Below the pieces are notes generated by a model. The model was given only the letters and a program-made list of their open reading frames with translations. It did not search any database and was not told where the DNA came from. The translations under genes and the position numbers were made by a program. A stretch of 63,912 nt of DNA, counting the filler, from Octopus bimaculoides (Eukaryota): assembly GCF_001194135.2 (NCBI RefSeq). It is 8 parts of 8 records of this genome, joined end to end, with 100 filler letters (N's around TTAATTAATTAA, not from the genome) between each part and the next. Parts side by side here need not be neighbours in the genome. Positions count along the whole stretch, not along the records: positions 13,096 to 22,739 come from NC_068981.1; positions 22,840 to 30,258 come from NC_068987.1; positions 30,359 to 56,041 come from NC_069002.1; positions 56,142 to 58,414 come from NC_068989.1; 4 more parts are not named here. The stretch is one strand, 5' to 3'. Of the stretch, positions 18,191 to 58,105 are shown in pieces; the first letter of the stretch is position 1; the number at the start of each line of letters is the position of its first letter.

Positions 18191-18260
18191 GCCCGGTAAC
18201 TGAAGAGATAGCCACGTGGGTTTCCGCCCCGATATCAGAAACTCGTAGTTTTATCACGGC
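18191..18260 (+). ncRNA. Type I hammerhead ribozyme, probably impaired
   Basis: CTGAAGA 18200-18206, stem II GATA/TATC, GAAAC 18238-18242, GTT triplet, stem I ggtaa/ttatc plus gcc/ggc; an extra A at 18237 breaks the core. Confidence 0.5.
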
Positions 18261-21200
18261 TAACGAATAATTGTCACATATTATATTCACAGATATATAT
18301 GCACATATATATATATATATCAGTGAAAGACGAATTATCTTCCATTCCCGGATAGATTACTAGCCACTGGATATTTATAATGAATACACTCTCAGAATTA
18401 GCTAAAGTCTTAAGACTATCTGTGTACAATTATAAAATCATATTACGTTACGTGACATCAACATAAATGCTAAAAATATTGTTGCAGTTTTATTCAGAAN
18501 NNNNNNNNNNNNNNNNNNNNNNNNNNNNNNNNNNNNNNNNNNNNNNNNNNNNNNNNNNNNNNNNNNNNNNNNNNNNNNNNNNNNNNNNNNNNNNNNNNNT
18601 ATATATATATATATATATATTAATACATACATACACATATATGTATGCGTTTGATATGCATGTACGTATGTGTGCACATATTTGTACCAGTACGTGTGTA
18701 TGTGTTTGGACTGTATGCCTGTACATATCTGTTTATATAAGGAACATTTCTAAATTAAATATACCCAATTTTTACATAATTATATAACTTACTAAGACAA
18801 CTCAAGTTTGAATGCTCTTAATACAGATGAAAATATAAACATACGCCTTTAGAGTTCAGTTTTGGCCAATGATGTTCTTCTGAATTGATGCCGTAAATAT
18901 TCCTTTTGAACGCTTGCTGATGAACCAGCAAGATAAATGTGAGCATGGAGGAGATTCCAGATAGACAATATTATGAGAATGAATGGTTGAGATGGTAGCT
19001 AGTGCCAGTAAAGGTATATTGTTACTGAGTGTTGTAAAGATGAATACGTTCATGAGCGGAGTTTATGATGTTAACTATTTGAAAAAAGATAAACCATTGA
19101 GAGGATGCATTACTTGTAGGGCAGATACTGGAGTGTGTTCGTTAGGAATAGGAGGTCAATCAGCTGAGAGGATATTACACTGATGTCTACCTGCGTGATG
19201 ATAGACCTGTCCCAAATGCATGCTAAGTATTCTATTCATCTGTATAGACTGTCAGCAGATATTGCAGACTGAATACTCATGCATATATTATTTATATGGG
19301 CAGTAATGACATCTAAGATAGAAGCATTTATTTCAAGACCAACAACATTCCAAATGAAAGAATACTTTTGTGTTCACTCATTAAGAATTGTGACAAATCT
19401 AGCAAAAGCAAATATTTGGTTAACCAAGGTTTAGGCCTACATATCGAATGGTTAATGACGAAACCTTACAAATAGCTATTTATTTGAGAATAGTTTGAAT
19501 AGAAATGAACAACGAACTACTCATTATCTTATAAATACAATATCCACGCTATTTTTGTGATTACTCATATTGCAACCAAAAGTTAAGCACCATCTACCTT
19601 CAACGAGAGCCTAACTTAAATCACGAAAATGGAAACGGTGCGCCATGCTGTTCGATGAACTGGACTGGAGTTAGATTTGCGAGATTGATGCCATCTGCTG
19701 GAGTACTTGGTGCCTTTACCGAAGTAACGCCAGGAAAACTGTAACATAATAGTGTCTGTCTGGAGTAATGTCATTTAGGCTACAAAGAAGAGGGCGTAAT
19801 ATTTTGTTAACACTCAAAACTGTCTTATTTAAATAAATATTACATATTTCTACACCCCAAGACATTCAATATACTTGAGAATATATCTGGTTTCTATGGC
19901 GTTCTGAACATTCGATTCAAACGCCCACTGAAAGATCTAGCCTCGCGTTACGATTTCATCTCTATTGGTTTTATTCATTCTATGTTGGATATGTTTTAAC
20001 TTTTGTATTATTTACCTTAATTGTGTCCTTTTATTGAAGCGAAGCTAACTAAAGCATGATGGAACAACTAAGAAAGAGTTAAATTTCAATTATTTATGCA
20101 ACTTTTTCCCTTGCTGTCCGTGATGAATATTTCCAGAATGACAGGGAAATTAATGATTGCGAACCGTTCTCTTCTATAATTCTGAATTTGTATCGTTATA
20201 CATTAAATATGTGTATGAAAGTTCCCAGATTTTGTTTATAATGACTTGTTTTTGAAAACCGAGAAAGTACATGAAACAAATAATACTCATGACACATAAT
20301 TTAATAGCATTATTACAGTCAGTAAGTTTATATATGAAGAACAAATTTAATTAGAACACACTCATATATTACAAGTTATTTGTAAATTTGTTTCTAAGGA
20401 AATACATATAACAAATTTAGACGGACGCTTGTATATGTGAATTTCTTAATATCCGTACTTTGATGATTTATATAATAAATTTGGACAACAAATTTCCATC
20501 TGCTGCAACAATAAGACGTTCAAATTATTTTCTTAATGAGATACTGTGTATAACTATGACTTCACTGTAATTACAAATAGTAAGTATTCTTGTTCACAAG
20601 AAGTTTTTAGTTTTGTTTAAATGAAGATTCATTGCCAGTTCCTCCACAGGTTTCTGGCTCTTTTAAACAGTAAATTTATATTATTTACAAAACTCATGCC
20701 TAGAATAATGAATCGTATTCAAGAGCTTTTCTTAGTCTTTTTCTTTCTTACTAAACGAATGGTCCCATTGTTGTTATATTCCAAAATGCTGGTACTATGG
20801 AAATCTACTTGCAATATCCCAATAATCTTTCTTCGATTGTTTTTAATCTCTAATCGTGTATCCTTGCTAATTTCAAAACATTTTAACTGCATATGAATAC
20901 ATTTCTATACGTAAACAAAAATAGATTTATGAGTATTTTACCTATAATGCTAAAAATCACAGGTACAATATTCAGTGAAGTTCGAATTAAGTGATATGGT
21001 TTGCGAACTGTGCTTTGGTGGATTTCATTGAGTAGAAGTGCACTTGAATATGATAGATTTATGTTTCTCAGAGTTGCCCAAAATGTTGGTAGTCATCATA
21101 GTTAGAAAGATCTAACTGCATATTGTGCTGACATGCGAACAAAGGTTAATGCGCGTACACAATAACAAGTGAATGATTCATCCCTCATTCAAACTGCGGA

Positions 21201-22462: not shown

Positions 22463-22860
22463 TAGATAATATATAAATAGATGCATATATCCATTCATAT
22501 ATGTACATAGCTACATCTATATGTATACATACATGCATATATGGGCATAGGACATCAAAAAACGTTAAACACAATAAGAAACGAAAACAGAAAACGAACT
22601 TTTTTCCAACAACGAAAATAGACAGAGAAACGAGACATGCAACATAAAGAGCATAACACTTCGTCCGTTGTCCCAGTTCCATCTACTGCACGTTTCATAT
22701 ATATATATATATACATACATATATATATATATATATATANNNNNNNNNNNNNNNNNNNNNNNNNNNNNNNNNNNNNNNNNNNNTTAATTAATTAANNNNN
22801 NNNNNNNNNNNNNNNNNNNNNNNNNNNNNNNNNNNNNNNCATATATAAATATATATTATA

Positions 22861-23340
22861 TATATATATAAATAATATTTTGGGAATAAAAGATGGATTT
22901 TTTCCCTTATGAGGTTTTTTTCACGCTAGCTACTTGATAAATTCTTGTAAAAGAGTTCATCCTATTATTGAATTTAATATATAACCAGAATATATTCAGT
23001 GCTGAATTTATTCTGAGAAAAAAACACATGTACCGAGATGCAATTCGAAATTCCCACCACTTACATAGGTAAATAGCGATAAACAGTCTTGTGTATACTA
23101 TAATGGTATGTTGTTTGGTATGTTGAATTTTTCTGTCTACTTCTATTTATCTTGACCATATTATACTGAAGAGTAGAGGTTATATAATACTACAATAACT
23201 ACGAAATCATGATCTATAATTCAGTCTGTTGAGAGTTGCATTTTCTCGCGTTCGGTAAAATGTGTTTTTTATAGTAGTCTGACCTTAGAGTCCCTCATAG
23301 CGTGAGGCATTATTGTATAATAATGCCCTTATATAAATAT
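22861..23340 (+). mobile_element. About 480-bp non-coding hammerhead-bearing unit (Penelope terminal repeat or retrozyme-like monomer)
   Basis: Contains the hammerhead at 23152; both ends are homologous to 41406-41540; flanked by (TA)-rich DNA. Confidence 0.55.
23152..23224 (+). ncRNA. Type I hammerhead ribozyme, intact core
   Basis: Stem I attata/tataat plus ttga/tcag after a 4-nt bulge; CTGAAGA 23166-23172; stem II GTAG/CTAC; GAAA 23203-23206; palindromic stem III ATCATGAT; AUC triplet, predicted cut after 23214. Confidence 0.85.
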
Positions 23341-24092: not shown

Positions 24093-26008
24093 GCGTCTGA
24101 GGACAAATGTCCTCCATAGGACCATCATGGTTTCCTTATCTCTGGTTCTGAATGTTCTCAGGATCCATCCAGCCAGCTGTCTGCACTTTGTCGCCATCCT
24201 GGTAATGTGCACTTGGAAAGAGGTATCATCACTCATGTCGACAACCCAGGTCCCTCACTGATTTAGGCTCTGGGATTGAAATTCCCTGTGGACCAGTGTA
24301 CTCTGTAAGTTTCGTATTCAGTTTTTGGACGTTGGTAGTGCAGGGCTTGGAATTTTTCAGCATTAAACTGCATATTATTATCCTTAGCCCATCTGTAAAT
24401 TGAGTCCAACTCCTGCTGCAGATGTACAACATTGCTGGGGTTCTGTATTTTCTGTGAGACTTTCGTATCATCTGTGTTGCTAACAAGGGTGGCTATCCGG
24501 GCAGTTGAGGGCATATCTGAGAGGGCCATTATGAAAAGCAGTGGTCCCAAGACAGTTATGTAACCACTCTCCAAGTTTTCCAGCTATGCCAACATCACGC
24601 AGTTTGTGGCATATCATACCATGATCCACTTTGTCAAAAGCTTTTGCAAAATCAAGGTCTTTTACGTCCACATTTGAGTTGTTCAGTAACTGCCTCAACA
24701 CCCAGTCATAATGTTGTAAGAGCTGGGTCAGGCAGCTCCTACCTGGTCGAAAGCCATGTTGGGTATCACTCAGCAAGTTATTTTCTTCAAGGAATGTGAT
24801 TAGTTTCCCTCTGACTATTCATTCCATGACTTTGCTGATGGTGTGAAGTCAGAGAGATAGGCCTATAGTTTTTGGTATCTGCTCTGCTTCCCCCTTTATG
24901 GATTGGGCATATTATTCCCTCCTTCAGCTTGCTTGGCAGTCTGCCATTTGCAACAAAGCTCTGGAAGAGAATCTGGAGGGGTTTTGTGAGGGCACGCTCA
25001 CACGATTTGGGGAGGATTGCTGGGAAAGCATGAAGACCAGCAGTTGAGTGTGCATCCACCTCATCTATGGCTAGTAGTAGATCTTCTTCACTAATGTTGA
25101 TATATTCCATCGTAATTGCCTCGCTGGTTATAGGTGAGGCGGCAAAGAAGTCCACTGGTTCGTTCACATGTCTGTGTTCCAATGGGGTGATAAAGACACT
25201 TTTGAACTGGTCATTCAGTACCTCACTGATCCTGGTTGGACTGTCTGTGAAGAAGCCATCCTTTTGGAAGAGGGGTCCTATCTTGCAGCGTATTGAGGCT
25301 GTTTCTTTCGCGTAATGAAAGAAGGCCTTTGGAGTTGACTTAATTTTTTTTATAACCCAAGCCTCTTTGTCCCTCACATGGGATTGTTGCAGCCTTTTTT
25401 TCAATCTCCATCAGTGTTGTTTTTAGGCAGGACCTTTCACTACTTTTGAGATGTTGGTGGAGTCAATTTGCAACTTTCATCCATTGTCTCCTGAGGATCT
25501 TCCTCTCCCTTGGAATTTTGTTCCGTTTTGTGTTGGCCTTGTGCTCTGAGAGATAATTCTGGCATATGGCTTGCACAACAGACATGAAACATTCTAGATT
25601 CATGCCAATGTCCGGTGTGGAAGACATTTTAGCCAGTCCTGTCTGAGGATCTCTTTTTGGATCAATTTCCAGTCTACTATGTGGAAGTTCAGATTGGAGA
25701 AGTTTCAGGTGCTTCCTTTAGGCTGTATATCTCTGATTACTTTCGGTTCAAACATAGACAGCTCTATTATGTTATGATCCGAGACTGATGTCGGCGTCAC
25801 TTTCACATCATGAATGATGTCTATATTGTTCGTGAAGCAGAGATCCAAAATGTTATTCGCTCTAGTTGGTCTGAGAACAGCTTGCTCCATGAATAGGGCA
25901 TTGGTGAGGTTGAGCAGGCATTCCACCTGTGCTTGCTTGCGATAAGTCATTCCTGAGAGTATGAGACCTTCGGGCCATTTGACGTTGGGGAAGTTGAAAT
26001 CACCCTTG
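24093..26008 (-). mobile_element. CR1-like LINE ORF2 pseudogene (end of APE plus RT)
   Basis: GDFNFPNVKW, PTRANNILDLCFTN, SDHNII, KNYRPISLTS, QHGFRPGRSCLTQLL, DFAKAFDKVDH, TVLGPLLFI, DDTK, LQQELDSIYRWAKDNNMQFNAEK; frameshifts and an internal deletion at EWLHN|TVLGP. Confidence 0.92.
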
Positions 26009-26729
26009 GTGTAGCCACGTCAGCTGCTGCACAATCTTTTGCGCCATGCACAAAAAAGACTCTTGCTCAGCTGCTGCGTTGCGTATAATTTCTGAAGAGC
26101 GCACTTCTTTGGTGAATTTTTTTCTTGGGGACATCTGTCGTCTTTCCTCAGGGAAGTTTTTATCATTTAGGCCTTTGTAGTTTTGGCGGGGNNNNNNNNN
26201 NNNNNNNNNNNNNNNNNNNNNNNNNNNNNNNNNNNNNNNNNNNNNNNNNNNNNNNNNNNNNNNNNNNNNNNNNNNNNNNNNNNNNNNNNNNNNNNNNNNN
26301 NNNNNNNNNNNNNNNNNNNNNNNNNNNNNNNNNNNNNNNNNNNNNNNNNNNNNNNNNNNNNNNNNNNNNNNNNNNGTTCTTGGGTGCCTTCCAAATTTCT
26401 TCTTTCCTGTAGGGTCTTGGATGGCATTGGATCCACCTTGGGATTTTCTACTTTTTGTTTGGTGGAATGGGGTTTTGGTTTTTACGTTTTCATTTTTATA
26501 TTTTCCTTTTACCTCTTTATACCTGTGTTCCATTCTTCCTTTTCTTGTTGGTACTGCTTTCCTCTGGTTATCTATTGGGGTGATGGCTCCTTTCCTTTGT
26601 AGGACCACTGTCACAGAGGAGCTTCTATTTGCTGCTTCTATTTGCTGCTGCCTCCACTATCCTTTTCTGCCTTAATAAATATATTATATATATAAATGCT
26701 ATTCTTAGAACAGCTTGGTTATGCTTGTA

Positions 26730-29924: not shown

Positions 29925-30200
29925 AAGCAGTGTCTATAATTGCCTTGATCCCAAAGTCGCTAACTACTAATCTATGTTGTGGGGTACATTCTTCGCCAGG
30001 GTAGGTTTTGGCATTTATAAGCCGCCCTCTTTCCCTATTTCTGGCGAGGATGTAGTCGATTTGGCTAGAGTGTCTGCCGGAGCGGTAGGTGACTAGGTGA
30101 CTGGCAGGTTTCCTGAAGTTGGTATTGCAGACCATAAGATCGGTTGCATCACAGAACTCCAGCAGTCTGGTTCCCTCCTCATTTCGGGAACCGAAGCCAT
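29925..30200 (-). mobile_element. RTE LINE endonuclease (APE) fragment
   Basis: GSRNEEGTRLLEFCDATDLMVCNTNFRKPASHLVTYRSGRHSSQIDYIL...PQHRLVVSDF. Confidence 0.9.
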
Positions 30201-30359
30201 AATTGTCACGTCATTGTACTTATTGAATAGTAATGGGCCACTGGCTGTCATGATGGCGNNNNNNNNNNNNNNNNNNNNNNNNNNNNNNNNNNNNNNNNNN
30301 NNTTAATTAATTAANNNNNNNNNNNNNNNNNNNNNNNNNNNNNNNNNNNNNNNNNNNNA

Positions 30360-31005
30360 ATGTTAAGCTTGTTGTTATCGTTAAGGAATTTATGATTGAG
30401 GTTATCTTCGTATTTATTGTTATTATTTAAATTAAAAACTGTATCATTATTACTATTGCTATTAATATTATTATTATTATAACTACTCAGATCGGTTTCA
30501 TAAGTAGAATCTATATAATTAACCTTTTCTCTGTAACCTGCTTTTAATAAAGCTAAATTGTAAAGTTCAGCCTCCTTATTGAAGATGCATTCATTCGTAG
30601 ATAGTTTGGTTAGTCTAAGTGAAATATGTTTGACCAAATTTCTCGTTACAGAATTTGGATGATTGCTGGATTTAGTGATATATTTTAGGTTAGTGGAGGG
30701 TTTGTGATACGGGAAAAATGTTTTAGTATGTAGATCTAAAGTGACGTCCAAGAAGTTAGCTATAGATGTTTCATCTTCAAGTACTATACCAAAGCCCATT
30801 CTACTAAAAAACCTAGCTAATCTATTTTTAACTTTTTGTATTTTTTGATTTGTGGTGTTCTCTAAGGATAATAGACAATCGTCTCTGTATAGACCACCCT
30901 TCACATTTGGGAATTGGTCTTCTAATTCGTATAGAATGTATGTGCATACTAAATCTGCTATTTGTGCTGGTTTCATACTCGGTCATAATGTCTTACGTTT
31001 AAGAT
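30360..31005 (-). mobile_element. Penelope-like reverse transcriptase fragment
   Basis: AQIADLV..YIL...GLYRDDCL...NFLDVTLDL...YHKP...SNHP...LSTNECIFNK..YNLALLKAGY (ORF 30311-30976). Confidence 0.9.
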
Positions 31006-31015
31006 GATTCCCATG

Positions 31016-31098
31016 CATTCCCTGAAGAGAAGGTTACAATTTTAACATCACAGATCCCTATGGATCACATAGGTTGTAATCCTTTGAAACATATGTAG
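31016..31098 (+). ncRNA. Type I hammerhead ribozyme, 3' strand of stem I lost in gap
   Basis: CTGAAGA 31022-31028; stem II gaagg-ttacaat/gttgtaa-t-ccttt; GAAA 31086-31089; palindromic stem III ACATATGT; GUA triplet, predicted cut after 31097. Confidence 0.7.
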
Positions 31099-31577: not shown

Positions 31578-33334
31578 TAAGAAGGAAAGAGACGACAGGA
31601 AAAACAATGGTTATGCTATGAACCTCATTACATGACCATTGTTTTTCCTGTGCCATCTCTTTTTCTTATTACTGCCCTATACTCATCTAATACATTGTTT
31701 TAGTACCTGAAACACACGTATATTGTGTTTTACACCACGTTACTAGTTTTGCAATGCCGAAGCGAAATATATATGTGCGAGGTTGTACATATACACACGT
31801 GTCTCGCTCTCACTCTCATGATAAAACGTTGTCTCAGTAAAACCCAAAAGGGTTTGAGTTTTTTAAGAAATGATCTTGTGACTTGTTAATTAATTCGAAA
31901 GAAAAATCTTTCAAACTGCTAATTCATCACATCAATACGAAATCCTTAAATTACGAAAAGAATATCAAATATAACACGACTAAAGATAGAAAGAAATGGA
32001 TAAATAAATATACAAAGCAAAGAGCAAATACTGCAGAAAATTAAGAAGTCTTCGATAATAGTTCGTGACTGACATCAATTTTTCTTAAAAGAAAATAAAA
32101 AAATGAATCAGAAAAAAACAGCAACAGAACAAAAATTTAAAAGCAAAAATGAAATAGAATACAAAGTCAAAGTTTCCAGAATTTAATATTTTTTCAGTTA
32201 TTATTTGAAGGTGTGTGAATGTATAAGTGCGTGTATGTGTATATGTAAATGTGTGTGTCAGTGTAACTGACCTTTACTCAATTGCATGTGTGTGTGTGCA
32301 TGTGTATGTATGGTTGTATGTATGTATGTATGTATGACTGTATGTACACGACTGAGAAATTGAATAAAGATGAGAAAAAGCATATACAGCGAAATAGATC
32401 GATAGACGGATGGATGGATCGATGGATGGATACAGTGAAAGAGCGAGGAGTGAATGAATAAGTGAACGAACGAATGAGAACAGAAGATAAAAAGCTATTT
32501 TATTTCTCCATCTGGTAAACTAGTAGTCTTTGTTACAAATCGCCCCATGTTTGACCGCAGAAATTTCTCGACGATTCTGGAGATATTAAAACCAGTAAAT
32601 GATAGTTTGCCCAGATCCTCTCACACCTCACTGACCATGTTTTCTCCTTCTCACCGCATAATGGAAGTTTTTTTTTTTAAATTTGTTTCGGTTTTCCTAA
32701 TTGTCAACCTTTGGTTGAATTTTATTATGCCAATACTACATAGCTTTAGTTTTCTCTAAATCCTGTATGATTATGTGGCTTTCATCTTTTATCTCTCAAA
32801 GCTTCAAGTAACTCTCTCAATGCAAGAATATTTTTTACCGTTTAATCAAAGATGCGAAGGTAGTTCAGTGACCCCTAATGTTTAAGGTTCTCTGGATCTG
32901 TGGGAGGAAGGAAAAAGCTCATCTTTAGCTGCAGACCTGGACCGAATGCATCTAACCGAAAGGTCTCTGCATAAAGATACCCAAGAGCCAGGTGCAGTTG
33001 TTAAAGAGAGTGATGTATTCAGTCTAACGCAACACAACAAAAAGAAACGTAACAGCCGCTCCGGGCTAACGTTATTTGGATTGGTGCTTTATTTTATTGA
33101 TCTTTAAAGAAGAAGAGGCAAAGTTGACCTCCATAGATTTGAACCAATTCTGCAAACAGCTACAACGAATATCGCAATGTATTTTTGTCCCACATTATAG
33201 CGCTCGCTCCTTCAAATGGCGTCTACGAGGCCATCTTTATCATTGGCCTCCCGGTGTTATAAAATAGAACATCTTAACTGAAGAATATTCTCAATGAAAG
33301 AGGATTTTTATTAACATTGTTTTTAATGTTGGTA

Positions 33335-38677: not shown

Positions 38678-39289
38678 NNNNNNNNNNNNNNNNNNNNNNN
38701 NNNNNNNNNNNNNNNNNNNNNNNNNNNNNNNNNNNNNNNNNNNNNNNNNNNNNNNNNNNNNNNNNNNNNNNNNNNNNNNNNNNNNNNNNNNNNNNNNNNN
38801 NNNNNNNNNNNNNNNNNNNNNNNNNNNNNNNNNNNNNNNNNNNNNNNNNNNNNNNNNNNNNNNNNNNNNNNNNNNNNNNNNNNNNNNNNNNNNNNNNNNN
38901 NNNNNNNNNNNNNNNNNNNNNNNNNNNNNNNNNNNNNNNNNNNNNNNNNNNNNNNNNNNNNNNNNNNNNNNNNNNNNNNNNNNNNNNNNNNNNNNNNNNN
39001 NNNNNNNNNNNNNNNNNNNNNNNNNNNNNNNNNNNNNNNNNNNNNNNNNNNNNNNNNNNNNNNNNNNNNNNNNGGGGTTATTTTACCCTAAATTTATATA
39101 GCAATTATAAAATGGAGGAGAATATGCGGTACTCAACAGCTTGCAGACAGTGTATTCCGTTGAATTAATTAACTTGTTTTGTAACTAAAATGACAAAAAC
39201 CACAAAATACAAATGCTTATGACATACCATGTTATATTAACAATCGAGGTTACAAATATAAAGTACATTAGGAATTTGAGAATAAACAG

Positions 39290-39419
39290 GAACTTACAGC
39301 TGTTTCGGTCTAGCGTTGGCATGCCCCATTCTATCCGAATAGCTCCTGCCGGAGTAATTAGCAGATGAAATGCTGAAATGGGGGTACATGCATGATTCGC
39401 TAGGCCTCTTCAGAGATTC
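39290..39419 (-). ncRNA. Type I hammerhead ribozyme with a 100-nt branched stem II
   Basis: Minus strand: gaatct-CTGAAGA-ggcctagcg...cgctagacc-GAAA-c-agct-GTA-agttc; palindrome ACAGCTGT; predicted cut 3' of 39295. Confidence 0.75.
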
Positions 39420-41337
39420 ACAAAAATTTAACACAAATATAAAGTAAAAAATAAAGTTAAAAATAAAGTAGAAATAAAAATAAGAATACAGTAAAAATAA
39501 AATGAATAAATGAAAATGAAAATGAAAATATAAAAATATAAGGCACATAAAAAGCCTACAAACAGTACATGAGGTCATACAAATAGTTATAGACACTCCA
39601 ATGCACATGTCTGTGTTTCTGTGCATAACCATACTTGGATATCAAATGATTCAAGAGCATATATATATATATATGTGAGTACATATGTGTGTATATATCT
39701 ATTTATCCCCTCACACATACGTACACACATACATATATGTATACACAGACATTCCCATACGTACATGGCCCCTGGCACCAACGTTATTCGTTGTGTTTTG
39801 AAGGCTGAGTGCGTGCGTGTCAGTTCTGTATGTGTTGGATGGGTCTATGTGGAAGTTCTTTCCAGAGGAGTTATTTATACTAGGGTATTAATAGCAATAA
39901 TAATAGTGATAATGATGATGATGATAAAAACAACAACAACAACAGCAACAACATCAACAACAGCAACAACAACAACAATAATAATAATGTGCCAACTTTC
40001 GAACTTTGCGGTGAGGTGCCCCGTTATTTTTCTGCGTAGAAGATCATGTTATTCCTTTCAGAGTGTATGAGAGATTCTGCTGCTATTTGGGGAGGGTTAA
40101 TTTCTACAGTTAATTCCTCTCATCTAATTGGACAACTATTGTTTAAAAGTATCTTGGCTTAGCTACGGTTGGATAGACACCAACCGGCCAAGAGGGTTAG
40201 GGTGCGCATGCATACGTACACCTACACACACACACACACACACACACACGCGTGCTATATATATCTCCCTATATTTATATACACGCGAACATATATGTAT
40301 ATACACATATACATACACAAGCACACATCCCTTCATTCCACTATATATTTATATAGATGTAGTGTATATACAAGGGTTAGATGAGTTACTGAATAGATTA
40401 TTAAGAAGTTTATATGCAGATAGAAATAAATAAATAAAAATAAATAACTATCCTTATGTATATATACACGCTTAGAAGTATTCTATTTTTAGTAGATACA
40501 CTCAACTAATGAACCATTATGGTAGTTATTTATAAACTTAGTGAATTTACGTGTGATTGAATTTCATTATTTCTACTGTTTGGTTAAAACATGGGGCGTT
40601 AATTACTATAGAGACAATAGTGAATGGGGATGACCCAAAGATTTGAGTATCCTACCTAACTACCGTTAACTTACATAATTAAATAAATAGTTATGTTATT
40701 GCTGCCACCACCAGCATCATCCCCATACCGTATCCTGCATAACTAACTAGTTAATTAATACATTGGTTTAAATGAGTAGTTAAGTAAACAATAATTGATC
40801 AAACAAACAATCGATGAATAAAACCGTCCAAACCATGGCAGAATATCGTTGAGTACCAGAGGCCCTAACACGCAGAAGACAGTTACTCCCACATCCTCAT
40901 ATATACACACTCAAAATGTGCATACACACACACATATGTCCATGTGCATATACATCTACAGGCACACGACATTCCCATGGATGATTGTAAGTACACAGGT
41001 ACGCATATACCCACACTCGGACATACATACACACATATGTACACACATATATATACATATACACCAATATATATATATATACATACACACATTTATACAT
41101 ACACCCACATATATACGCATATATGCACATACATATACACACCCACATACACTCATATGTACATATTATGTACCCTCACATACACCCATACTCACACACA
41201 TACATACACACATATATATATACATATACAGAAAATAATAACGCCACACAGTGGACTTCTCAAAATAACCACATTTAGTACCTAATGCGAGGAAAAACAA
41301 CCAACAGAAGATGACCAACTTTCTTTTAAATAAACTT

Positions 41338-41401
41338 AACTGTGTATCGACCGATTTCGCGATTACTAGAATGAATCTAGATTTCGTTCATCAGCACAGT
41401 T
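41338..41401 (-). ncRNA. Type I hammerhead ribozyme with a mismatched first stem II pair
   Basis: Minus strand: aactgtg-CTGATGA-acga..ctaga ttcat tctag..tcgc-GAAA-tcggtcg-ATA-cacagtt; 7-bp stem I; A-C mismatch at 10.1/11.1. Confidence 0.65.
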
Positions 41402-41688
41402 TTCTGTAATAATGCCCTTTATATAAATATAAACGAATAATTATATTCTTGGGAATAGAAATTTCCCTTATGAATTTTTTTACACACTGGCTTCTTGATA
41501 AAATTCTTGTAAAAGAGTTTTATCCCTTTTTGAATTTATATACATATACATATACATTTATATATACATACATATATATGTACATACACACACATATACA
41601 CACACATATGCACTACTGTCTGCAAGTCGTTGAGTACCGCATATTCTCCTCCATTTTCTAATTGCTATATGTGTGTGTGTGTGTGTGT

Positions 41689-42168: not shown

Positions 42169-42334
42169 ACGTGTGCATTTGCTTGCGCATGTGTGTTGTG
42201 TGTGGGGGGGNNNNNNNNNNATGTGTGTGGGGTGGGTATGTGTGTGTGTGTGTATGTGTGTGTCTAAGTATATATATTATTGTGAGTGTGAGTCTGTTTA
42301 ATTTGACTTATATTTGTATATGTGTATATGTGTA

Positions 42335-42732
42335 TATTCGGTGAAAGCGACTCGATCTGTGGGCTGCAAAAACTGGATTCTTCACCAAGTTCTCACTCCT
42401 GAGTTTCTCGCTAAGAACAACATGGGTTCGCTTCCGCGCCCACCATATTCACCAGATTTACTACCTGCGGACTTCCATCTTTGTTCCAAGATGAAAATGC
42501 AGCTCAGAGGTCACAGTATTAAAACAGTTTTCGATATCCAGAGCGAATCGCAGGAGGTCCTGGACTTGCTTACGGAAAACGACTTCCAAGTTAGATTACA
42601 AATGTCACAGGAATTCTGGGTATATTGCTGCGCAAGGTGACTATTTTGAAGGCGATGACGTTAAAACTTAGATAAATAATTTAATTTTAATTAAACATAA
42701 TTAGTCAGGGAACCTTTTGATACCACCTCGTA
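42335..42732 (+). mobile_element. Mariner transposon 3' fragment with right TIR
   Basis: LPRPPYSPDLLPADFHLCSKMKMQLRGH...*LFEGD; terminal agtcagggaaccttttgataccacctcg followed by TA. Confidence 0.88.
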
Positions 42733-46850: not shown

Positions 46851-47290
46851 TCTTAAACACAAAAAAATACACATATACAAAAACCAAAGAAGGTAAAAAT
46901 ATATATGCGAATAAAAATAACGGCTTATCAACTAAAAATTCTAATGCGTGTCATGCTACTAGAAATCAAAATAAACTAAAATAAAATAAAATATCAATCG
47001 AATAAAAAAAATTCAATTCGTAAAACCATGCTAGGTTAGAGTTCAGGAACAAAGAGAGTTCCACAAATCAAGTCAAACACACCTATGGCCGTTTCGGGAG
47101 TTCATTGTCGCAGTTCGATTACAGTTAAACTGCATCTCGGCAATGACCCCCCACCCCCTGATCAGGATGAACAGGAAACTCAAACAAAAACAAAAAGTTC
47201 ATTCAACGCCGCATGGCTAATTTAAAGATAATAATCCATCACAGAACCAGTCCAAATTTTCTAACACAATGTACATATATGTATATATAT

Positions 47291-47591
47291 ATCGATTAAG
47301 TAAACAGAAGATGGAATTGGTATAACTCTATATTTAGTACGACGGTCGTTTCGGCTCAGACTGTGACTGTCCTTCGCGGATGGGATGCTGTACATCCATC
47401 TTGCAGTCTGGCTCGCATGAGGTACATTTATACATTAATTAAGACACCACTTTATATATGAATGTACCTGATGTGACCCGGACTGCAAGATGGATGCACA
47501 GCCCGTAAAGGACAGTCAGAGTTTGAGCCGAAACGACCGTCGTACTAAATATAGAGATATACCAATTCCATCTTCTGTTTATTTAATCGAT
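47291..47591. repeat. 300-bp imperfect palindrome made of two inverted hammerhead-bearing repeats
   Basis: 47291-47428 is the reverse complement of 47461-47591 (atcgattaagtaaacagaagatggaattggtata.../...tataccaattccatcttctgtttatttaatcgat), 32-nt spacer. Confidence 0.9.
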
Positions 47592-47796
47592 TTTTATCTC
47601 AACTTACATTGTGGAATTCCAAAAGTAGATCGAAAGAAAATATACCCCAACTGCGGATGACATCAGGTAGCCCAAACTGTGCCAGTGCTTTAATCAACAC
47701 ATCAGCACATTAACTAATGTATACTCATTGGTCCAAAACATTACATATATGTGAGTGTTTGTGTGTGCGTGTGTATGTGTGCGTGCGTGCGTATGT

Positions 47797-47838
<42 letters not shown>

Positions 47839-47839
<1 letters not shown>

Positions 47840-48990
47840 GTGATACTGTCACTCATACTAAGGAGGACACGCAAAATCTTATTAACGCAATTTCAGTGGT
47901 TTGTGAGGCAATTGGCTTAACGATAAACTTAACCAAAACTGTTGTCATGTTTCAGCCAGCACAAGGAATGTCATATATAGAACCTGGTATATTTGCGTAT
48001 GGAAGAAAACTTGCTGTGGTTTCTAAGTTTAGGGAGCACACTAAATACATCAGCGAATCTTAATGATGAAGTGTCACTACGCAATCAGAAAGCCAATGTT
48101 ACTTTTGCCAAACTGGACGACTGCCTATGGTCTAGACATGGTATTTCCACTGCGACAAAGATTAAAGTATACAATACATGTATCTTAACCTCTTTATTGT
48201 ATGCTTGCGAAACCTGGACTGTGTACCATAAGCACTTAAAACTTATGGGACTTTTTCATCAACAATGTCTCAGAAGGATTTTGATGATCAGCTGCAAAAT
48301 GTTTGTGAGAAATAATGAGGTGCTTGAAAGAGGGAAATGCTTCAGTATCGAAGTTTTGCTATTGCAGTACAGATTGAGATGGAATGGGCACTTAGTCAGA
48401 ATGACAGAATACAGAACACCTAAACAGCATTTTTACGGAGAATTGGTGACAGGTAAGCGTCCGTCCCACAAACCAATGATGAGGTACAAAGATTGTCTGA
48501 AACCGAGACTGAACAAGATAAATGTTCCAATTGACAACTGGGAAGATTTAGCGCATTGCCGAGAAAAATGCGAAAAAGTTGTGTATGAAGGCAAAAATGA
48601 ATTGGAAAGGAAGAGAATGGAGCATGCAAAGATTAAAAGAAAGATGAGGAAAAGTGACAAGCATTAATGAACGTAATGATCTTAGATGTGATGAATGTGG
48701 AAAGATTTGCGTTAGTAAGGCTGGGCTAAAGAGCCATATGAAGTCACACATTGCACAAACACACAAATGAAATCACACATTGCACAAGCCCACATTTCAC
48801 AACTGCACACTTCGAATGCATATTGTGTCATAAAGTATGCAAATCAAAAAGTGGCTTGAAAAGGCTTAGTAAAGTTGATGGAGCTGTAAACTATACGATC
48901 ACCAAGTTTTCTTGCACTAGTTGTCAAAAAGCATGCAAGTCTTTGACAGGTCTCAAAAGCTATATTCGTGCAGGTCATCGATGATATTCT
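47839..48990 (+). mobile_element. 5'-truncated RTE (BovB-like) LINE with three C-terminal C2H2-like motifs
   Basis: GLTINLTKTVVM, LGSTL, TKIKVY..ILTSLLYACETW, RLRWNGHLVRM..RTPKQHFYGEL..GKR, then CDECGKICVSKAGLKSHMKSH, CILCHKVCKSKSGLK, CTSCQKACKSLTGLKSYIRAGH. Confidence 0.9.
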
Positions 48991-49794: not shown

Positions 49795-51532
49795 ATGTAT
49801 GTATGTATGTATGTATTCTAAGATATCTTTCTAATTCTACTTTCTTCTATACTATGTCCAATATTCACTCCCGTTTTTCATTAATGTACCTCTATGCTAT
49901 ATAGTACTATATAAGAAGCACGTTTTTCTCTGGCGGGATATAATACGTTAGTTTATGATGATTTACAATATTACATCAAATAGGTATTTTTGCATATACG
50001 TTATGTATTCTTTAATTATTTCATTATTTTATAGTTTTGTACAATTCTATTGCCATTTATTTAGGTTAATTACCGTAACTTAATATGATACAACATTAAT
50101 GGTTACTCATATTTATTATCTATCTTTAATTTACTTCCTTCTAAACGTTTATTTACGTAATTAGTCGAATATGAAAATTTACTCTTTACACAAATCCATT
50201 GGATTCTCTCCCTTTCTCCTTCCACATGCAAAGAAAATTTTATTACCATTATTATTAATTTTAAGAATTTTCTGCGGCTCATTACGTCTTCTTTAATTTA
50301 AACTCTTAGTATAGCGTTCATAGCCTCTCTCCCGAAACAGCTACCTGTAAACTAGCGTTCTTGTTTCTAACGGTCATTTAACTTAGCTATATAGTGTTAT
50401 TCCTCGTACGTAATCTTAACATTCAGCACAAGTCTTGCATTTGTAAAATGGTTCCCTGAAGATAAAATTATATGTATAAACCAGCATCTCTTATTCCTTT
50501 GGAGTAGGGTGCATATATTTTTGAAACATGTGTAGGAATTAAAGGAACTTATTGATTATATGCGTTTTGTTCCATTTATTATTATTATTTCATATCAACT
50601 CAAAATACATCACCTTAACATGGAATTTCTACCCTTAACCAGGTATAATATCCCGGTTTCTGCGAGATCTTTGCTACCCTGGTAACTATTAACATATTTG
50701 CATTATCGAAGTTTTTCAACCAAGATAATATTAATATATANNNNNNNNNNNNNNNNNNNNNNNNNNNNNNNNNNNNNNNNNNNNNNNNNNNNNNNNNNNN
50801 NNNNNNNNNNNNNNNNNNNNNNNNNNNNNNNNNNNNNNNNNNNNNNNNNNNNNNNNNNNNNNNNNNNNNNNNNNNNNNNNNNNNNNNNNNNNNNNNNNNN
50901 NNNNNNNNNNNNNNNNNNNNNNNNNNNNNNNNNNNNNNNNNNNNNNNNNNNNNNNNNNNNNNNNNNNNNNNNNNNNNNNNNNNNNNNNNNNNNNNNNNNN
51001 NNNNNNNNNNNNNNNNNNNNNNNNNNNNNNNNNNNNNNNNNNNNNNNNNNNNNNNNNNNNNNNNNNNNNNNNNNNNNNNNNNNNNNNNNNNNNNNNNNNN
51101 NNNNNNNNNNNNNNNNNNNNNNNNNNNNNNNNNNNNNNNNNNNNNNNNNNNNNNNNNNNNNNNNNNNNNNTATATATGCACACTCACACACACACATACA
51201 TATATACATTATATACGCGGTAGGTGCTGAAAAGCATCTGGCTTAGGACAACAGAAAATAGAGGAGGATCAGTTGATTGAGATGCTATTCAACTTATTCC
51301 CCTCTCTGATACACACATTCATTGCAGAAGTCCTTCCGTTTTTCTAAGCCCTCTAAAACATCCCGGAAAGTCGAGCCTCCAACCCGGCCTTTCGTGATAC
51401 TCTTAAAACCAGGAACTTTTCACTATCCCCTCCTGTTTATATGCACACATAAACACGCACAGACACACACATGCACACACACATGCACACACACATGCAC
51501 ACACACACTTGCACACACATGTATACACACAT

Positions 51533-51814: not shown

Positions 51815-52790
51815 TAACAAATACTTTCTGAGGTTAAGTGAGTTCCAGGACTCGAGCTGGTGTGTTGGTTGACCTGGCGTTGCATGTATAGTTTGTGCAT
51901 CTATTCACACAAGAATTTCAGATGGATGGGTACAAATAAGAATTTATATTCAGGCTACAAGATCTTTTGTAAGTTCCGATTGTACGTTCACATCTGATGG
52001 GCAGCTGATCTCTACAGCAGTGCATAACCTTTCTACCCAGTCCCACAGAACAATATCCAGTCTGTTATCTTTTCACCGAAATGGTGTTTTTAATGTGGTG
52101 TTCCACCAGTATTCCTTGCTTTTAAATGTGCGAATACCTGCTGGTTATGACATGCCTTTAATGTATACGTCAGGGCAATCCTTCGTGCTGATAGTACTGT
52201 AAATAGTCTTTGCTACTATATCATGCCTCACGACAGGTAGAATCTCGTAAACATTTTGAGGCAGCTGATGAGGATGTGAGTGATACCTTCCACACTGGTA
52301 TAGCAAAGTCGACATTTTTAACACAACGTGGAGTCTTGGTGGTATTTTTGGCCCTCTTATTTATCAGGTATTTAGTAGCTATTTCCTGTTCCTGGGCATC
52401 GAAGGCATATCGTTCTAGATGAGATGTAATGTGCTTATCGCAGGTCCAAGAGAGGATACTCTTCCTTTTAATGCAGTTGTTACCCTCTAGCTTTACGAAA
52501 TATGTGCCCATGCATTGCTTTTTGCTCGCATGATAGCTGCTTGTCTCCCAAACTTTTGTTTATGTAGGCCAGTCCAGCCTCCTTTGGGTCGCATGAGACA
52601 GGTGTTTTCTCAGATAACCTGCACAGTAGTTCTCCAACTCTAAGGTTGTTGTCGCTCTCACTTTTGAGTATGCATGGAATGAACTTATTTCAATCTTTAC
52701 TGATCAGCAGGTGCTGTCCCAGTGATGCAATGCGACATTCAAAGGCTGTTTCAACTGACCTTAGGCTTCTACCTCTAACACTTCGTCTCA
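51815..52790 (-). mobile_element. Decayed R4/Dong-like non-LTR retrotransposon 3' part (zinc knuckle and restriction-like endonuclease)
   Basis: HGHIFRK, AQEQEIATKY, RHDIVAKTIY, EYWWN, DNRLDIVLWD, CTAVEISCPSDVN, PEYKFLFVPI across frameshifts. Confidence 0.75.
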
Positions 52791-53160
52791 CATAAATCTT
52801 ATCGGTGTTGCTATTAAACACTTTCGCTCTTTAAGTATGCATGCATGTATGTATGTATGTATGTATGTGTGTGTGTGTGTGTATGTATGTATAACCTAGG
52901 GAATTAATCAAAAGAACAGAGGTGAAAGACCTTATCTTCGTCTCAATAACACATTTTGCGTCGTACCAAGTTAAATATAACAACACAGCGTTGATATTAA
53001 AGATGATAATTATACTAATGTCTTCCCTATCGATTACAACATCGACACTGGTTTCGTTTGACTTTTACCTTTTTCGTTGTTTTTTTACCTAACAACATCT
53101 GTTATTGTCTCTCACCGATTGTCCTGTCGTTTCTGTTCTTTATTCTTTATTTTCTCTCTT

Positions 53161-53195: not shown

Positions 53196-53817
53196 ATCTC
53201 TCTCTTTCTTTATCTCTCTATCTCTCTCTCTCTGTATATATATATATCCCATCTACCCCACCCTATAACGTTTAACTTTATTATCTCCTCCAATAAATTG
53301 CAATAAGATGTGATCTCACAACTTCTGAATATAGCCTGGGACTTTACTTTTTTTACTTTTTACCTTGTATCCTTACCATTATGGAATCACTGACTCTCTG
53401 ATGAAGCTTTGGAGTTCAATTGTTGTATGACCTGTCAACTTTAACATATTGGACCCCCAAAGTAGTAACAGCTGTAAGAGTGGGGTTGTATTTATTTATT
53501 TAGTTATTTATTTATTCCTATTATTATAATTAATAAATCTTACAGTGTTTGTCAATTGAATCTCTTCTCCATTTTCTTCCTTGCCTTATATAATTTCTGG
53601 ATAAACTTTTGTTTACCTCCACTTGTACCTATTATTCAATGGTACTATTGCCTTTCAGCAGTAATTATTTGAATATAAATAGGTATCCCTCCAGTAGTAT
53701 ATTGGATATTTATTAGCCCTTAGAAGGTTGTCTAATCTCTAACTCATATATACTATGTGTGTGCATATATATANNNNNNNNNNNNNNNNNNNNNNNNNNN
53801 NNNNNNNNNNNNNNNNN

Positions 53818-54205: not shown

Positions 54206-54267
54206 TATATGTGTATGTGTGTAGATATGTATGTATGCATGTATGTATCTATTTATGTAGTAATCTA

Positions 54268-54498: not shown

Positions 54499-54537
54499 TA
54501 TTTATCAAGTAATCGATCGATTTCTATCTACCTATCA

Positions 54538-54588
<51 letters not shown>

Positions 54589-55049
54589 TATTTACCTATC
54601 TGTATATTTGTATTTCTGTTTATCTGTCTCTGTTCGAGGGGCAACTTCCGATTAATCACCTCATCCTTTATTCTTCAATTACCGTTACCTATATGCATAA
54701 ATGCCCTAAATTCTTACTTTCCTTTTCCACCGCCAGTCAATCGAAAGACTCAAACTAAAATATTCTTTGTCCCAGTATCCATGGGTACGTTCTACTTCTG
54801 TTTGTCTTTCTCAAATAGCTTATTCTCTTCTGTACTTCTGTTGCTATGTCCAAATACTTCAATATTTTTCCGACCTAGATTTTCGAAATGATCATCTATC
54901 TTCGGGTATTTCTTATCCTCCTCACCCATGATGCTGTAAACACACTGCCCCGCAGTTTACACTTCTATTCCTTGTATATTGTCTCCCATCTCGTTTTCAC
55001 TACCTTATTCCCTTTTGTCCATGTCCTTGATATGAAAACATTTCAGGAT

Positions 55050-55640
55050 GCACATGAGAAGAATTAAGAAGTCAAAAACAGATAGATGACCTTCTTAAGA
55101 CTTAGATGTTTTGCTATCAATGCAGAATTTCAAGCATCACTTATTGGAAAATTTGTACTAGTGCTACTCCGTCTCCAAAAAGGACCGCAAGCGAATGAGC
55201 TTCAAGGTCAACGCTGAGATCATCCAGAAAATAACTGCTGTTCTGATGAAAGCTCTCGCGAATTCAAATGATAAGTTAGTAACAAAATAGTGGCCATTTA
55301 CAACAGAGGATGCTAAATGAATATTAGAACACAACAGAAAGAGCGAAATATAAGACGACAACGAGGAAATTAAGAAATAAAGTTAAGGGAATTGAAACAA
55401 GGAAGGTAAACTGAACAACGTTTGGAGATATTAAGAATAGGCTTTCTAGCAGCAACATGAGAAAAATCATTTCAACTGGTAAAAGATACGCACCAATAGA
55501 AAGAAAGTAACAGCAGAGGTTATCAAATGCAAAAATTGGAAGAAATGGCCGAAGGAAGAGAGATAATGGAAAAGTACACCACCAAATATTATTCAAAACC
55601 AACATCCAGCACAGCAGTGAGGTTGTACATATTGTACAAG
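55050..55640 (+). mobile_element. Highly decayed LINE ORF2 linker region, probably RTE
   Basis: Purine-rich plus strand with traces such as VIKCKN and EGREIMEKYTTKYYSK resembling the RTE region between APE and RT. Confidence 0.3.
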
Positions 55641-56141
55641 AGTCTTCGAATAACAATCACCACTCAATCATGCGAGATGTTAAAGTCACAGAAATGTCTC
55701 TGAAAGGCAGAAAAATCAGTAAAAGTCGACAATCACATGATCTGGCTGTTCAGGTGCCGTGTCAGTCGATTCTCGTCTGCGAACGATAAAACAACGATTA
55801 CTTTTTTACACCGTGCACCTATGTCAGAAGTCCTCTCAATGTAAATAACTTAATGTTCTGAATTCAAACACAACATCCACGTTAAGTAGGACATACAGAC
55901 TACCTTTTGATATTTATACTGTCTCTGTCGATATTAATTATATATAGCGTATATATAATGATGGAGACGAAAATTGATGTTCCATGTGGCAGGCATGATA
56001 GATAGATGGATACATACATACACACATGCATACATACATATNNNNNNNNNNNNNNNNNNNNNNNNNNNNNNNNNNNNNNNNNNNNTTAATTAATTAANNN
56101 NNNNNNNNNNNNNNNNNNNNNNNNNNNNNNNNNNNNNNNNN

Positions 56142-57722
56142 AGGTTTATTTAGCCAGAGGGGAAGCAGATAAGAAAAAATTTGCCAATGTTCTGCGCTGT
56201 GAGGACCAAAGATTTGAGGTATTTCGTGTTGCAAGACAGAGTGTGAGAGAGAATTGTGATGTTGTGGGAGAGAAATGTGTTCGCATGGATGATGGTACGC
56301 TTGCACTAAACGAGGCTGCAAAGAGAGAGGACTGGAGACGCCACTACGAAAGGTTGCTCAATAAAGAGAATGAAAGGGACGACCCAACAGAGGGACCAGC
56401 GATTCGAGTTGACAGTACCATGGTAGATAAAGCTATTAAGAGTATGAAAACAGGGAAAGCCCCCGGCCTTTCAGGAATCACTGCAGAGATGCTCAAAATA
56501 TCTGGCAGTGTCGGCTATAGCCTAGTTACCCGTATTGTTAACCAGGTGATACATGAAGGAGTCATACCCAATGATTGGTGTAGCAGCACCATAGTCAACT
56601 GCTACAAAGGTAAAGGTGACGCTTTAGATACAAATAATTACAGAGGTATCAAGTTGTTAGATCAGGTAATGAAAGTCATGGAGAGGGTCAAAGCCCAACT
56701 AATTACGGAGAGTGTTAGTTTAGACAAGATGCAGTTTGAGTTTGTGCCAAGGAAAAGCACCACTGATGCTATATTTCTGGTAAGACAGCTGCAGGAGAAA
56801 TACCTAGCCAAAGATAAACCTCTGTATCTGGCTTTCGTTGACATGGAGAAATCCCTTATCTGGTGGTCAATGAGGAAGCTAGGGATAGAAGAATGGTTAG
56901 TGAGAGCTGTACGAGCCATGTATAGAGATGCTGTCAGTAAGGTGAGGGTTGGCAACGAGTACAGTGAAGAATTCCGGGTAGAGGTAGGGGTCCACCAAGG
57001 TTCAGTCCTCAGCTCCCCTCCTATTTATCATAGTCCTCCAGGACTTTGAGAGAAAAGTTGAACTTACGAAGCATCAGTTGTGGTGTGCAAGAGAGACGAT
57101 TGCGCTGGTATGGTCATGTAGCGAGAATGGATGAGTATAGCTGTGTGAAAAAGTGCCACATACTAGCAGTTGAGGGAACCTGTTGAAGAGGTAGGCCCAG
57201 GAAGACCTGGTATGAGGTGGTAAGGCAAGACCTTCGAACATTGGGCCTCACCGAGGCGATGACTTCTGACCGAGACTTCTGGAAATATGCTGTGCGTGAG
57301 AAGACCCAGCAAGCCAAGTGAGACCTAAATCTAAGGCCTCTGCCAGGGATGTAGCCAGCCCACTTATGCATACCTTTCCTTCATTGGACACTAAACTCCA
57401 TTTGCGAAGACCTATTGAGGCAAGTGAAATCGAAATCGAACCAAACTCAACGACTGGCACCCATACCAACATCTCCTTCATTGGACATGAAACTCAGCTT
57501 GCGAAGACTTGTTGGGGCAAGCGAAAGCGAAATCGTCATGGCACCTGTGCCCAGCACCGCTTCCTTGGCACTTGTGCCAGATGGCATGTGTAAAGACATT
57601 CGAGCGAGGTCGTTGCCAGTGCCGCTGGACTGGCTCCCGTGCAGGTGGCATGTAAAATACATCATTTTGAGCGTGGCCATCGCCAGTACCACCTGACTGG
57701 CCTTCGTGCCAGTAGCACGTAA
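56142..57722 (+). mobile_element. RTE LINE: RT fragment with internal deletions and repetitive 3' UTR, terminal tail missing
   Basis: MKTGKAPGLSGITAEMLK, IPNDWCSSTIVNCYKGKGDAL..NYRGIKLL, QFEFVPRKSTTDAIF, LAFVDMEK, GVHQGSVLS; GRPRKTWYEVV; same family as 29925 and the tails at 23376 and 59537. Confidence 0.93.
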
Positions 57723-58105
57723 TAGCTACCCTTTTTTATATATATATTCAAGTATTTAATATTAGCATTTCAAAGTTTGTTTCAGCATTTTTTCATTTTC
57801 TGCCGACTGAAACTGCGTCTGCGCAGCAGATTTTGAAAAATTTAGAATGTATATCTTAGAAGACATGTGCTTTCTGCCTTCTGTCTTGTAGATGTACGTT
57901 AATTAATTGACGGCTGGTTACTGAAGAGGATTTGCCTAGTAAATTACTTTATTTACTAAAAAATCTGAAACCTATGGGTCTAACCGTTAAAAATAAGGTA
58001 AAAGTTTTTATGTTTTCTTCCCTTTGAAATGTTTTACTTTTTTGTGGTTTTTGGTTGTTTTTGACTGTCTTCTAGCATGTAGAAATTATCTGTTATAGGT
58101 AATTT
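57723..58105 (+). mobile_element. About 380-bp non-coding hammerhead-bearing element abutting the RTE 3' UTR
   Basis: AT-rich block unrelated to RTE, carries the hammerhead at 57907, ends in (TA)-rich DNA; boundaries inferred. Confidence 0.5.
57907..57990 (+). ncRNA. Type I hammerhead ribozyme, intact with GUC site
   Basis: Stem I ggtta/taacc plus ttgac/gttaa after a 4-nt bulge; CTGAAGA 57921-57927; stem II ggattt/aaatct capped by tagtaaat/atttacta; GAAA 57967-57970; stem III acc-tatg-ggt; predicted cut after C57980. Confidence 0.85.

Follow-up and report, generated by a model that had tools for sequence, protein, structure and literature searches.

Hammerhead ribozymes with an enlarged domain II at the probable ends of Penelope-like elements in Octopus bimaculoides

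Introduction

Hammerhead ribozymes of Penelope-like elements (PLEs) are mostly single motifs from truncated elements of many families, and opposite-strand pairs spaced by 100-700 bp also occur among them (Cervera and de la Pena 2014, PMC4209133), and a dimer model has been described for minimal hammerheads (PMC4209133; reviewed in PMC6765202). The Hydra clade of PLEs is defined by a CxCX5C linker, a C-terminal GIY-YIG domain, and reverse transcriptase (RT) motifs (PMC8557442). One element of Octopus bimaculoides itself, Hydra-1_Obim, is recorded with a (TA)n insertion and with a hammerhead among 26 Hydra rows that have a palindromic stem III, and Penelope-13_HM is given as an inverted, 5′-truncated copy with its hammerhead antisense (Craig et al. 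2021, PMC8557442). In Octopus vulgaris, PLEs account for 6.83% of the genome in 190 families (PMC13282606 supplement), and ribozymes do not come up in the main text there. Animal retrozymes have been described as well, with no cephalopod among the animal classes given as sampled (PMC7229834; bioRxiv 10.64898/2026.07.22.740005). Here, we analyze hammerheads in a stretch of 63,912 nucleotides of O. bimaculoides DNA (assembly GCF_001194135.2; eight parts joined by N filler), hereafter the window. The sites found are likely the 3′ pseudo-long terminal repeat (pLTR) ends of several PLE families, left in (TA)n as 5′-truncated or inverted copies, with one family, built on a unit of about 465 nt, being non-autonomous. 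Their enlarged domain II and the 465-nt family are new relative to the literature searched; the hammerheads as such belong to a type, and lie in a context, already described.

Results

Hammerheads in the window

Eleven hammerhead-ribozyme sites were found in the window: six complete, one cut by an N gap (31022), and four relics. Complete sites are named after the position of the C of CUGAnGA.

15185-15294, + strand: hammerhead relic (15191), its core damaged; domain II of 78 nt; belongs to one family with the pair at 47285-47597
18193-18259, + strand: complete type I hammerhead (18200); domain II 31 nt; stem III ACTCGTAGT; found by scan and covariance model
23160-23220, + strand: complete type I hammerhead (23166); domain II 30 nt; stem III ATCATGAT; found by strict and relaxed scans
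31014-31098, + strand: N-gap-cut hammerhead (31022); domain II 57 nt; antisense to an RT remnant
39290-39419, - strand: complete type I hammerhead (39413); domain II 100 nt, folding z -3.0; stem III ACAGCTGT
41226-41401, - strand: hammerhead (41394, at 41338-41401) plus tail; domain II 29 nt; stem III ATCGGTCGAT
47285-47597, no single strand: two tailed, degenerate hammerheads in divergent inverted orientation; domain II of about 62 and 55 nt
50449-50541, + strand: complete type I hammerhead (50456); domain II 60 nt; stem III ACATGTGT; found by strict scan and top covariance-model match
53393-53481, + strand: hammerhead relic (53398); domain II 60 nt, folding z -3.8; stem III ACAGCTGT
57912-57988, + strand: complete type I hammerhead (57921); domain II 39 nt, folding z -4.9; stem III ACCTATGGGT

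The complete sites (18200+, 23166+, 39413-, 41394-, 50456+, and 57921+) all present CUGAnGA, GAAA, and NUH in type I order with stems I to III; core changes are present in all four relics, such as GAAA to GTAA in 53398. In 18200 the cleavage position is a U and stem III comprises 3 bp, ACTCGTAGT being a single change away from the Hydra-type ACTCNGAGT. The base of stem II bears an A-C mismatch in 41394 and a U-U in 50456, and 31022 has lost the 3′ strand of stem I to the gap. Cleavage of 23166 is predicted 3′ of C23214. Relic 15191 belongs to the family of the inverted pair (23 of 27 nt identical); the pair's arms are 92% and 85% complementary.

A relaxed type I scan, the criteria of which were set after the sites were already known, was passed by 6 of the 33 CUGAnGA sites in the window, and a strict scan returned three complete folds, 50456 among them. 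Shuffled controls gave one fold in 9/200 relaxed scans (more than one in 0/200) and, under the strict scan, one fold in 3/300 block shuffles and 4/300 whole-segment shuffles, with two folds in none. The number of folds therefore exceeds chance, and the hammerheads are real. We also built a covariance model from 22 metagenomic Hydra hammerheads, none of them from the window. It returned eight window matches at expectation values (E) up to 3, the top five being 50456, 41394, 18200, 57921, and 23166; an E below 0.01 was reached by 50456 alone (7e-4), the four further sites scored 0.14-0.35, and 39413 and 31022 were not recovered. A match at 33278 (E=1, stem III non-palindromic) was rejected as a hammerhead, as were two more weak matches. 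Rfam searches of two local stretches at E up to 10 yielded no hammerhead family, and, by E-value over the whole window, the best 150 of 186 matches were microsatellite-driven microRNA and small nucleolar RNA matches only. Tails and upstream regions share no detectable similarity between sites, except those of 23166 with 41394, and a search for a long inverted repeat around the hammerheads gave nothing significant.

A preliminary description of this DNA had announced six near-complete hammerheads. All six cores are where it placed them (18200+, 23166+, 31022+, 39413-, 41394-, and 57921+), five of them do carry CUGAAGA, and the five stem III sequences that it quoted match ours. Five of these sites fold as complete hammerheads; 31022 is gap-cut, and 50456 and 53398 had been overlooked. 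Its relic at 15191 stands, while what it took for relics at 47291-47591 is an inverted pair of two whole degenerate hammerheads. Of the checks that it had named, shuffled sequence never equaled the window's fold count (maximum one), and Rfam hammerhead models recovered no site.

Two further observations concern sequence near individual sites. A 56-bp piece, 95% identical between its copies, lies alone between microsatellites at 41615-41670(+), while its other copy, at 39096-39151(-), closes the tail of 39413; it is likely the terminal tail of the 39413 family. An imperfect palindrome of 91 bp (80%) occupies 31578-31668, just beyond the gap that cuts the 31022 hammerhead.

Coding remnants of the Hydra clade

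Searches by tblastn and with a hidden Markov model (HMM) located PLE coding sequence in the window only at 16703-17424(+) and 30380-30979(-), within two broken fragments; no intact single open reading frame (ORF) is present.

16703-17424, + strand: PLE ORF remnant, 5′-truncated and frameshifted, with RT thumb, CxCX5C linker, and GIY-YIG endonuclease
30380-30990, - strand: PLE RT remnant with motifs 4-7 and thumb

The RT fragment at 30524-30982(-) has 2,846 phmmer relatives at E up to 0.001; those of at least 150 aa among the best 150 served as tblastn queries, and the HMM was built from 20 of these. The remnant at 16703-17424 drew 73 tblastn matches from the relatives (best E 2e-34), an HMM score of 160, and 38% identity to one of them, P0011; that at 30380-30990 has a best phmmer match at E 3.5e-40 with 56% identity and an HMM score of 177. 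The motifs CSCKDKKLC and YVGLT fall within 16852-17304. Of the Hydra-defining motifs, we found the CxCX5C linker and an RT4-5 pattern ending in GLYRDD, with RWR and DKT in full-length relatives. On these motifs the two remnants are assigned to the Hydra clade; Neptune, our first guess, was dropped against the published Hydra definition. The preliminary description had noted that just two sites touch Penelope coding sequence, which holds for coding sequence of the Hydra type.

Pfam recognized neither PLE fragment and full-length relatives barely, a word-based search found no longer homologs of the endonuclease fragment, and no relative of the PLE fragments was found in viral contigs. A tblastn match at 39744-39830 (E 0.23) was not significant, and a YVGQS match at 52561 was rejected as PLE, since it sits in an apparent long interspersed nuclear element (LINE)-type remnant. 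Ten relatives of the RT fragment were looked up; four have names, all four being Octopus proteins misnamed as GATA- or myb-like. Octopus RefSeq proteins that carry the name "GATA zinc finger domain-containing protein-like" or "myb-like protein I," or that are entered as uncharacterized (relatives P0001, P0002, P0003, and P0020), represent pieces of PLE ORFs of the Hydra clade.

The window also contains what we take to be remains of LINE RT/endonuclease sequence and of a mariner-like transposase, at 24266-26019(-), 29926-30210(-), 47755-48664(+), 51850-52800(+), 56144-57046(+), and 42302-42637(+); among these, a Pfam RVT_1 match was obtained for 56144-57046 only. A perfect direct duplication of 334 bp across a 10-N gap, at 61402-62079, is likely an assembly artifact.

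Placement of hammerheads relative to ORFs and (TA)n

The 16703-17424 remnant begins directly after a (TA)17 run at 16669-16702, and 18200 lies about 780 nt downstream of its end; from strand and position, this hammerhead is likely the 3′ pLTR of that ORF remnant. Between them, 17523-17935 shows an internal duplication of about 200 bp (70%) with a recurring 19-nt motif, which may account for the long spacer. Hammerhead 31022 abuts the 5′ break of the RT remnant on the opposite strand, the arrangement of an inverted pLTR copy. The nine other sites, 39413 included, have no Hydra-type ORF within 1.5-27 kb. (TA)n occurs at the ORF break at 16669-16702, at both ends of 22875-23339, and in the loose ends after segment B of that unit (see below); at other sites it is uninformative, because TA runs are common in the window (4.5 per kb).

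For reference we used the 80 best of 413 confirmed metagenomic Hydra loci, a mutually related, non-random sample. Of the 35 loci with at least 300 nt 3′ of the ORF, 19 have a similarly built sense hammerhead there. Same-type hammerheads stand on both sides of the ORF in four loci (L011, L029, L036, and L058), which are complete pLTR-ORF-pLTR units, and L025 carries antisense hammerhead copies only.

Enlarged domain II and predicted folding

Domain II measures 29, 30, 31, 39, 57, 60, and 100 nt at the seven intact-core sites and 55-78 nt in the relics, bearing out the extended stem II of the preliminary description. In hammerheads of 33 metagenomic Hydra loci it spans 12-30 nt, though the scan admitted up to 130, so that three octopus sites just reach the top of the reference range and four exceed it. 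The metagenomic structure covaries, with 91% of cells paired and 12 of 14 pairs changed on both sides. In the octopus sites, a closed helix extends beyond a basal stem of 4-6 bp, and the added helix is predicted to leave the catalytic core intact. Domain II folds better than its shuffles (z of -2 or lower) at 8 of the 11 sites and not at the other three, a measure that is itself favored, because the domain ends were picked as paired. The long arms are likely a trait of octopus Hydra families, because the 57-nt case (31022) adjoins a Hydra RT. In 23166, 41394, 57921, and 39413, a basal stem of 4-8 bp gives way to an internal loop whose 3′ side is rich in A (UAA, UAA, AA, and CAA, respectively), a candidate stand-in for the loop II tertiary contact.

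Minimum-energy folds of the monomers formed stem III in none of the six sites; in dimer folds it paired between molecules in 4/6, a prediction that would pair any palindrome. These modeled folds are in line with the dimer model. The palindromic stem III of 8-10 nt is predicted to pair across two copies into a double hammerhead; lone genomic copies would therefore be expected to cleave poorly.

The 465-nt unit and its relative

Site 23166 belongs to a high-copy unit, a relative of which is found at the 41394 locus.

22875-23339, + strand: high-copy unit of about 465 nt without PLE ORF, between (TA)n runs
41402-41546, + strand: non-inverted part of an insertion, in which A is joined head to tail to B, with a TA-rich run at the end

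The unit consists, in order, of segment B (22875-22980), a middle part, the hammerhead, a U-rich tail, and a terminal hairpin, A. Its longest stop-free frame is 79 aa (minus strand), it has no Hydra HMM match, and it folds better than 100/100 shuffles (z -3.3). DNA contigs and RNA reads were aligned to 22860-23340 at 80% likeness, and 2,266 DNA contigs match. A head-to-tail joint from A to B (23339 to 22875) is carried by four DNA contigs and by three reads in each of two RNA runs; a variant joint to 22899 appears in 3 and 9 reads. Among the aligned pieces, none reaches across two hammerheads. Summed contig depth, which is no copy number (the longest contigs listed are about 40 deep), is about 1 million over B, about 0.5 million over A, 45,000-126,000 over the hammerhead, and 400-56,000 over the middle. 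Loose contig ends after B enter TA, and inversion joints lie near A. The short arrangement is not confined to the 22875-23339 locus, since there are contigs that link B with the middle and the middle with the hammerhead. Other copies show 23182 A>G, completing the inner helix of domain II; the free N7 position varies, and no catalytic position is among the 40 listed of 151 differences between copies. A short complementarity of 23016-23050 with the tail of the unit may lie behind some opposite-strand joints.

At the 41394 locus, 41402-41546 has 76% identity to 22856-22983 and an alignment score of 154 (shuffle mean 42.5; 0/500 as high), and the tail in 41226-41401 aligns with that of 23166, again with 0/500 shuffles as high. 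The A-to-B junction is sense here, and the hammerhead with its homologous tail is inverted against it. Judged from these alignments, 41226-41546 is a 5′ inversion within a family related to the 465-nt unit.

RNA records matching the unit number 326/12,895,792 and 329/11,974,664 in the two runs, of which about 6 in 100 were sampled, from libraries of unspecified selection. Both strands are represented; 0 and 3 records are at least 99% alike to the unit, and 83% and 81% continue into unlike sequence. This looks like passive read-through of dispersed copies. Reads across the A-B joint do not show circles, because the joint exists in genomic DNA. A back-joint of 156 nt (23326 to 23171) was seen in RNA only, in 10 reads with four starts from one run; it is absent from DNA contigs and lies off the cleavage site.

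Discussion

Origin of the hammerhead sites

The sites are best explained, in our view with good probability, as remains of the 3′ ends of several PLE families, likely of Hydra-clade origin where coding sequence survives. A Hydra protein would carry out target-primed reverse transcription into (TA)n, and synthesis would begin near the 3′ end of the element and mostly halt early. Because reverse transcription would stop early, most insertions would keep hammerhead and tail only and lack ORFs. For the 465-nt unit, a head-to-tail template is likely copied by a PLE protein in trans. The unit's genomic joint, depth gradient, loose TA ends, and inversion joints fit the tail and the internal initiation that PMC11167929 describes for a PLE, together with inverted copies of the kind in Fig. 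2 of PMC8557442. The 22875-23339 family is thus likely a non-autonomous PLE of the retrozyme type.

Against chance folds in AT-rich DNA, six folds stand versus at most one in any of 200 shuffles and three versus at most one in 600, besides the palindromic stem III and the positions beside PLE ORFs; the weak individual covariance-model scores (E 0.14-0.35 at four sites) and the lack of an Rfam match speak for chance, which both shuffle tests refute and which we consider practically negligible. The ORF-less sites could instead be true non-LTR retrozymes, i.e., transcribed, self-cleaving tandem arrays with circular RNA as in coral, mussel, and axolotl. The 465-nt unit does lack a PLE ORF and has a head-to-tail joint, its folding surpasses all 100 shuffles, and its size is close to the 150-450 bp range of PMC7229834. 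However, 14000-59000 contains no tandem array with a hammerhead unit, nor do same-strand copies of one family adjoin; depth is dominated by the 3′ tail, as truncated insertions would give; and the matching RNA reads are few, on both strands, and mostly run into unlike sequence, the A-B joint itself being genomic. We hold this reading to be distinctly unlikely.

It is unlikely, too, that all sites, 23166 included, are solo ends of autonomous PLEs and that the 465-nt arrangement is a one-off rearrangement. B after A resembles an element's 5′ start after its pLTR, and summed depth falls to 400-1,000 at 23081-23131, as this explanation would have it; yet independent contigs bridge B to the middle (22948-23044 and 22950-23085) and the middle to the hammerhead (22983-23221), and depth over 22979-23063 is comparable in order of magnitude to that of the hammerhead. 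A more far-reaching proposal would see a large, uncatalogued set of Hydra-derived octopus hammerheads with a structured domain II of 40-100 nt, overlooked by Rfam and by descriptors, in which the 465-nt family would be a cephalopod retrozyme spreading through self-cleaved circular or multimeric RNA and reinsertion by the Hydra RT/endonuclease, with the arm as a protein-binding or tertiary control of cleavage; we offer it tentatively and regard it as doubtful.

Several points weigh against truncated PLE ends as the source. Across the window, Rfam models gave no match at gathering score. The spacer of about 780 nt between 18200 and its presumed ORF exceeds the 67-525 nt of the reference loci, and RNA read starts and ends pile up nowhere on the 465-nt unit, the cleavage site included. 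The coding search used Hydra-type queries, with no profiles for clade Penelope/Poseidon, Neptune, or Nematis; for 39413, 50456, 53398, 57921, 15191, and the 47285 pair, the parent clade is assumed. The dimer folds and summed depths carry the qualifications given with them, the contigs cannot reveal whether the 465-nt unit occurs in arrays, and B might equally be the start of an autonomous element of greater length.

The preliminary description had seen several hammerhead families of PLE origin with a dimer-type palindromic stem III, which our results support. Its suggestion of solo repeats or retrozymes holds insofar as the read data indicate a short, retrozyme-like, non-autonomous unit for the 23166/41394 family; neither a two-hammerhead tandem array nor circular RNA was demonstrated, and the test for arrays that it had proposed came up empty in 14000-59000. 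The clustering is not surprising, solo motifs being the norm (PMC4209133): if the O. vulgaris share of 6.83% is carried over to this species, PLEs would supply about 3.9 kb of the window's 56.8 kb of called bases, and ten or so ends would be unremarkable. Nor is the octopus record blank, given the hammerhead-bearing Hydra-1_Obim (PMC8557442).

Novelty and significance

The literature searched, which excluded Repbase/Dfam, the O. vulgaris repeat library, subscription papers, and bioRxiv and other preprint supplements (sources that may hold such families), gave no catalogue of octopus hammerheads, no long domain II in Hydra-type hammerheads, no ORF-less hammerhead family of about 465 nt, and, in the 15 papers returned by one of the searches, no use of the phrase "extended stem II." Because long-arm hammerheads escape Rfam, cephalopod ribozyme counts are likely far too low. 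The motif is usable as a tag that assigns unclassified short octopus repeats to PLEs. An ORF-less, high-copy unit with a PLE tail and the marks of truncation and inversion would provide a natural test case for the proposal of animal retrozymes as non-autonomous PLEs, and for the role of the PLE hammerhead.

Comparison with known systems

As in the Hydra PLEs of PMC8557442, the window combines a C-terminal GIY-YIG, CxCX5C, RT motifs, a sense type I hammerhead (18200) that by strand and order probably belongs to the preceding ORF, a palindromic stem III of 8-10 nt, (TA)n insertion, and an inverted, 5′-truncated copy with an antisense hammerhead. The layout at 31022, with an antisense hammerhead at the 5′ break of the RT, is that of Penelope-13_HM. 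In contrast to the published Hydra elements, every ORF in the window is broken; domain II reaches 29-100 nt, whereas in File S2 of that paper the 26 Hydra rows do not exceed about 25 nt; and, compared by eye, none of the window hammerheads matches that of Hydra-1_Obim. The hammerheads of PMC4209133 likewise share solo motifs, opposite-strand pairs, many families per genome, a palindromic helix III, and the dimer model; there, helix II has 7-8 bp and helix III is minimal, whereas helix III here has 3-5 bp and domain II is far longer, with internal loops.

Like animal non-LTR retrozymes (PMC7229834; bioRxiv 10.64898/2026.07.22.740005), the 465-nt family has a type I hammerhead within a short, non-coding unit, linkage from head to tail, and a proposed PLE origin and mobilization. 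Those retrozymes form hammerhead-per-unit arrays and circular RNA, whereas the octopus family is seen as dispersed, truncated, and inverted copies with a tail of about 100 nt. PAc, an Anolis element of the Poseidon type (Frangieh et al. 2024, PMC11167929), differs from the 465-nt unit: it is autonomous, its hammerhead overlaps the ORF start, and its cleavage required the protein. The two nevertheless agree in that the insertion tail is the start of the next unit, by internal initiation in PAc: insertions of the octopus unit end about 100 nt into the next unit, matching the PLE tail described there.

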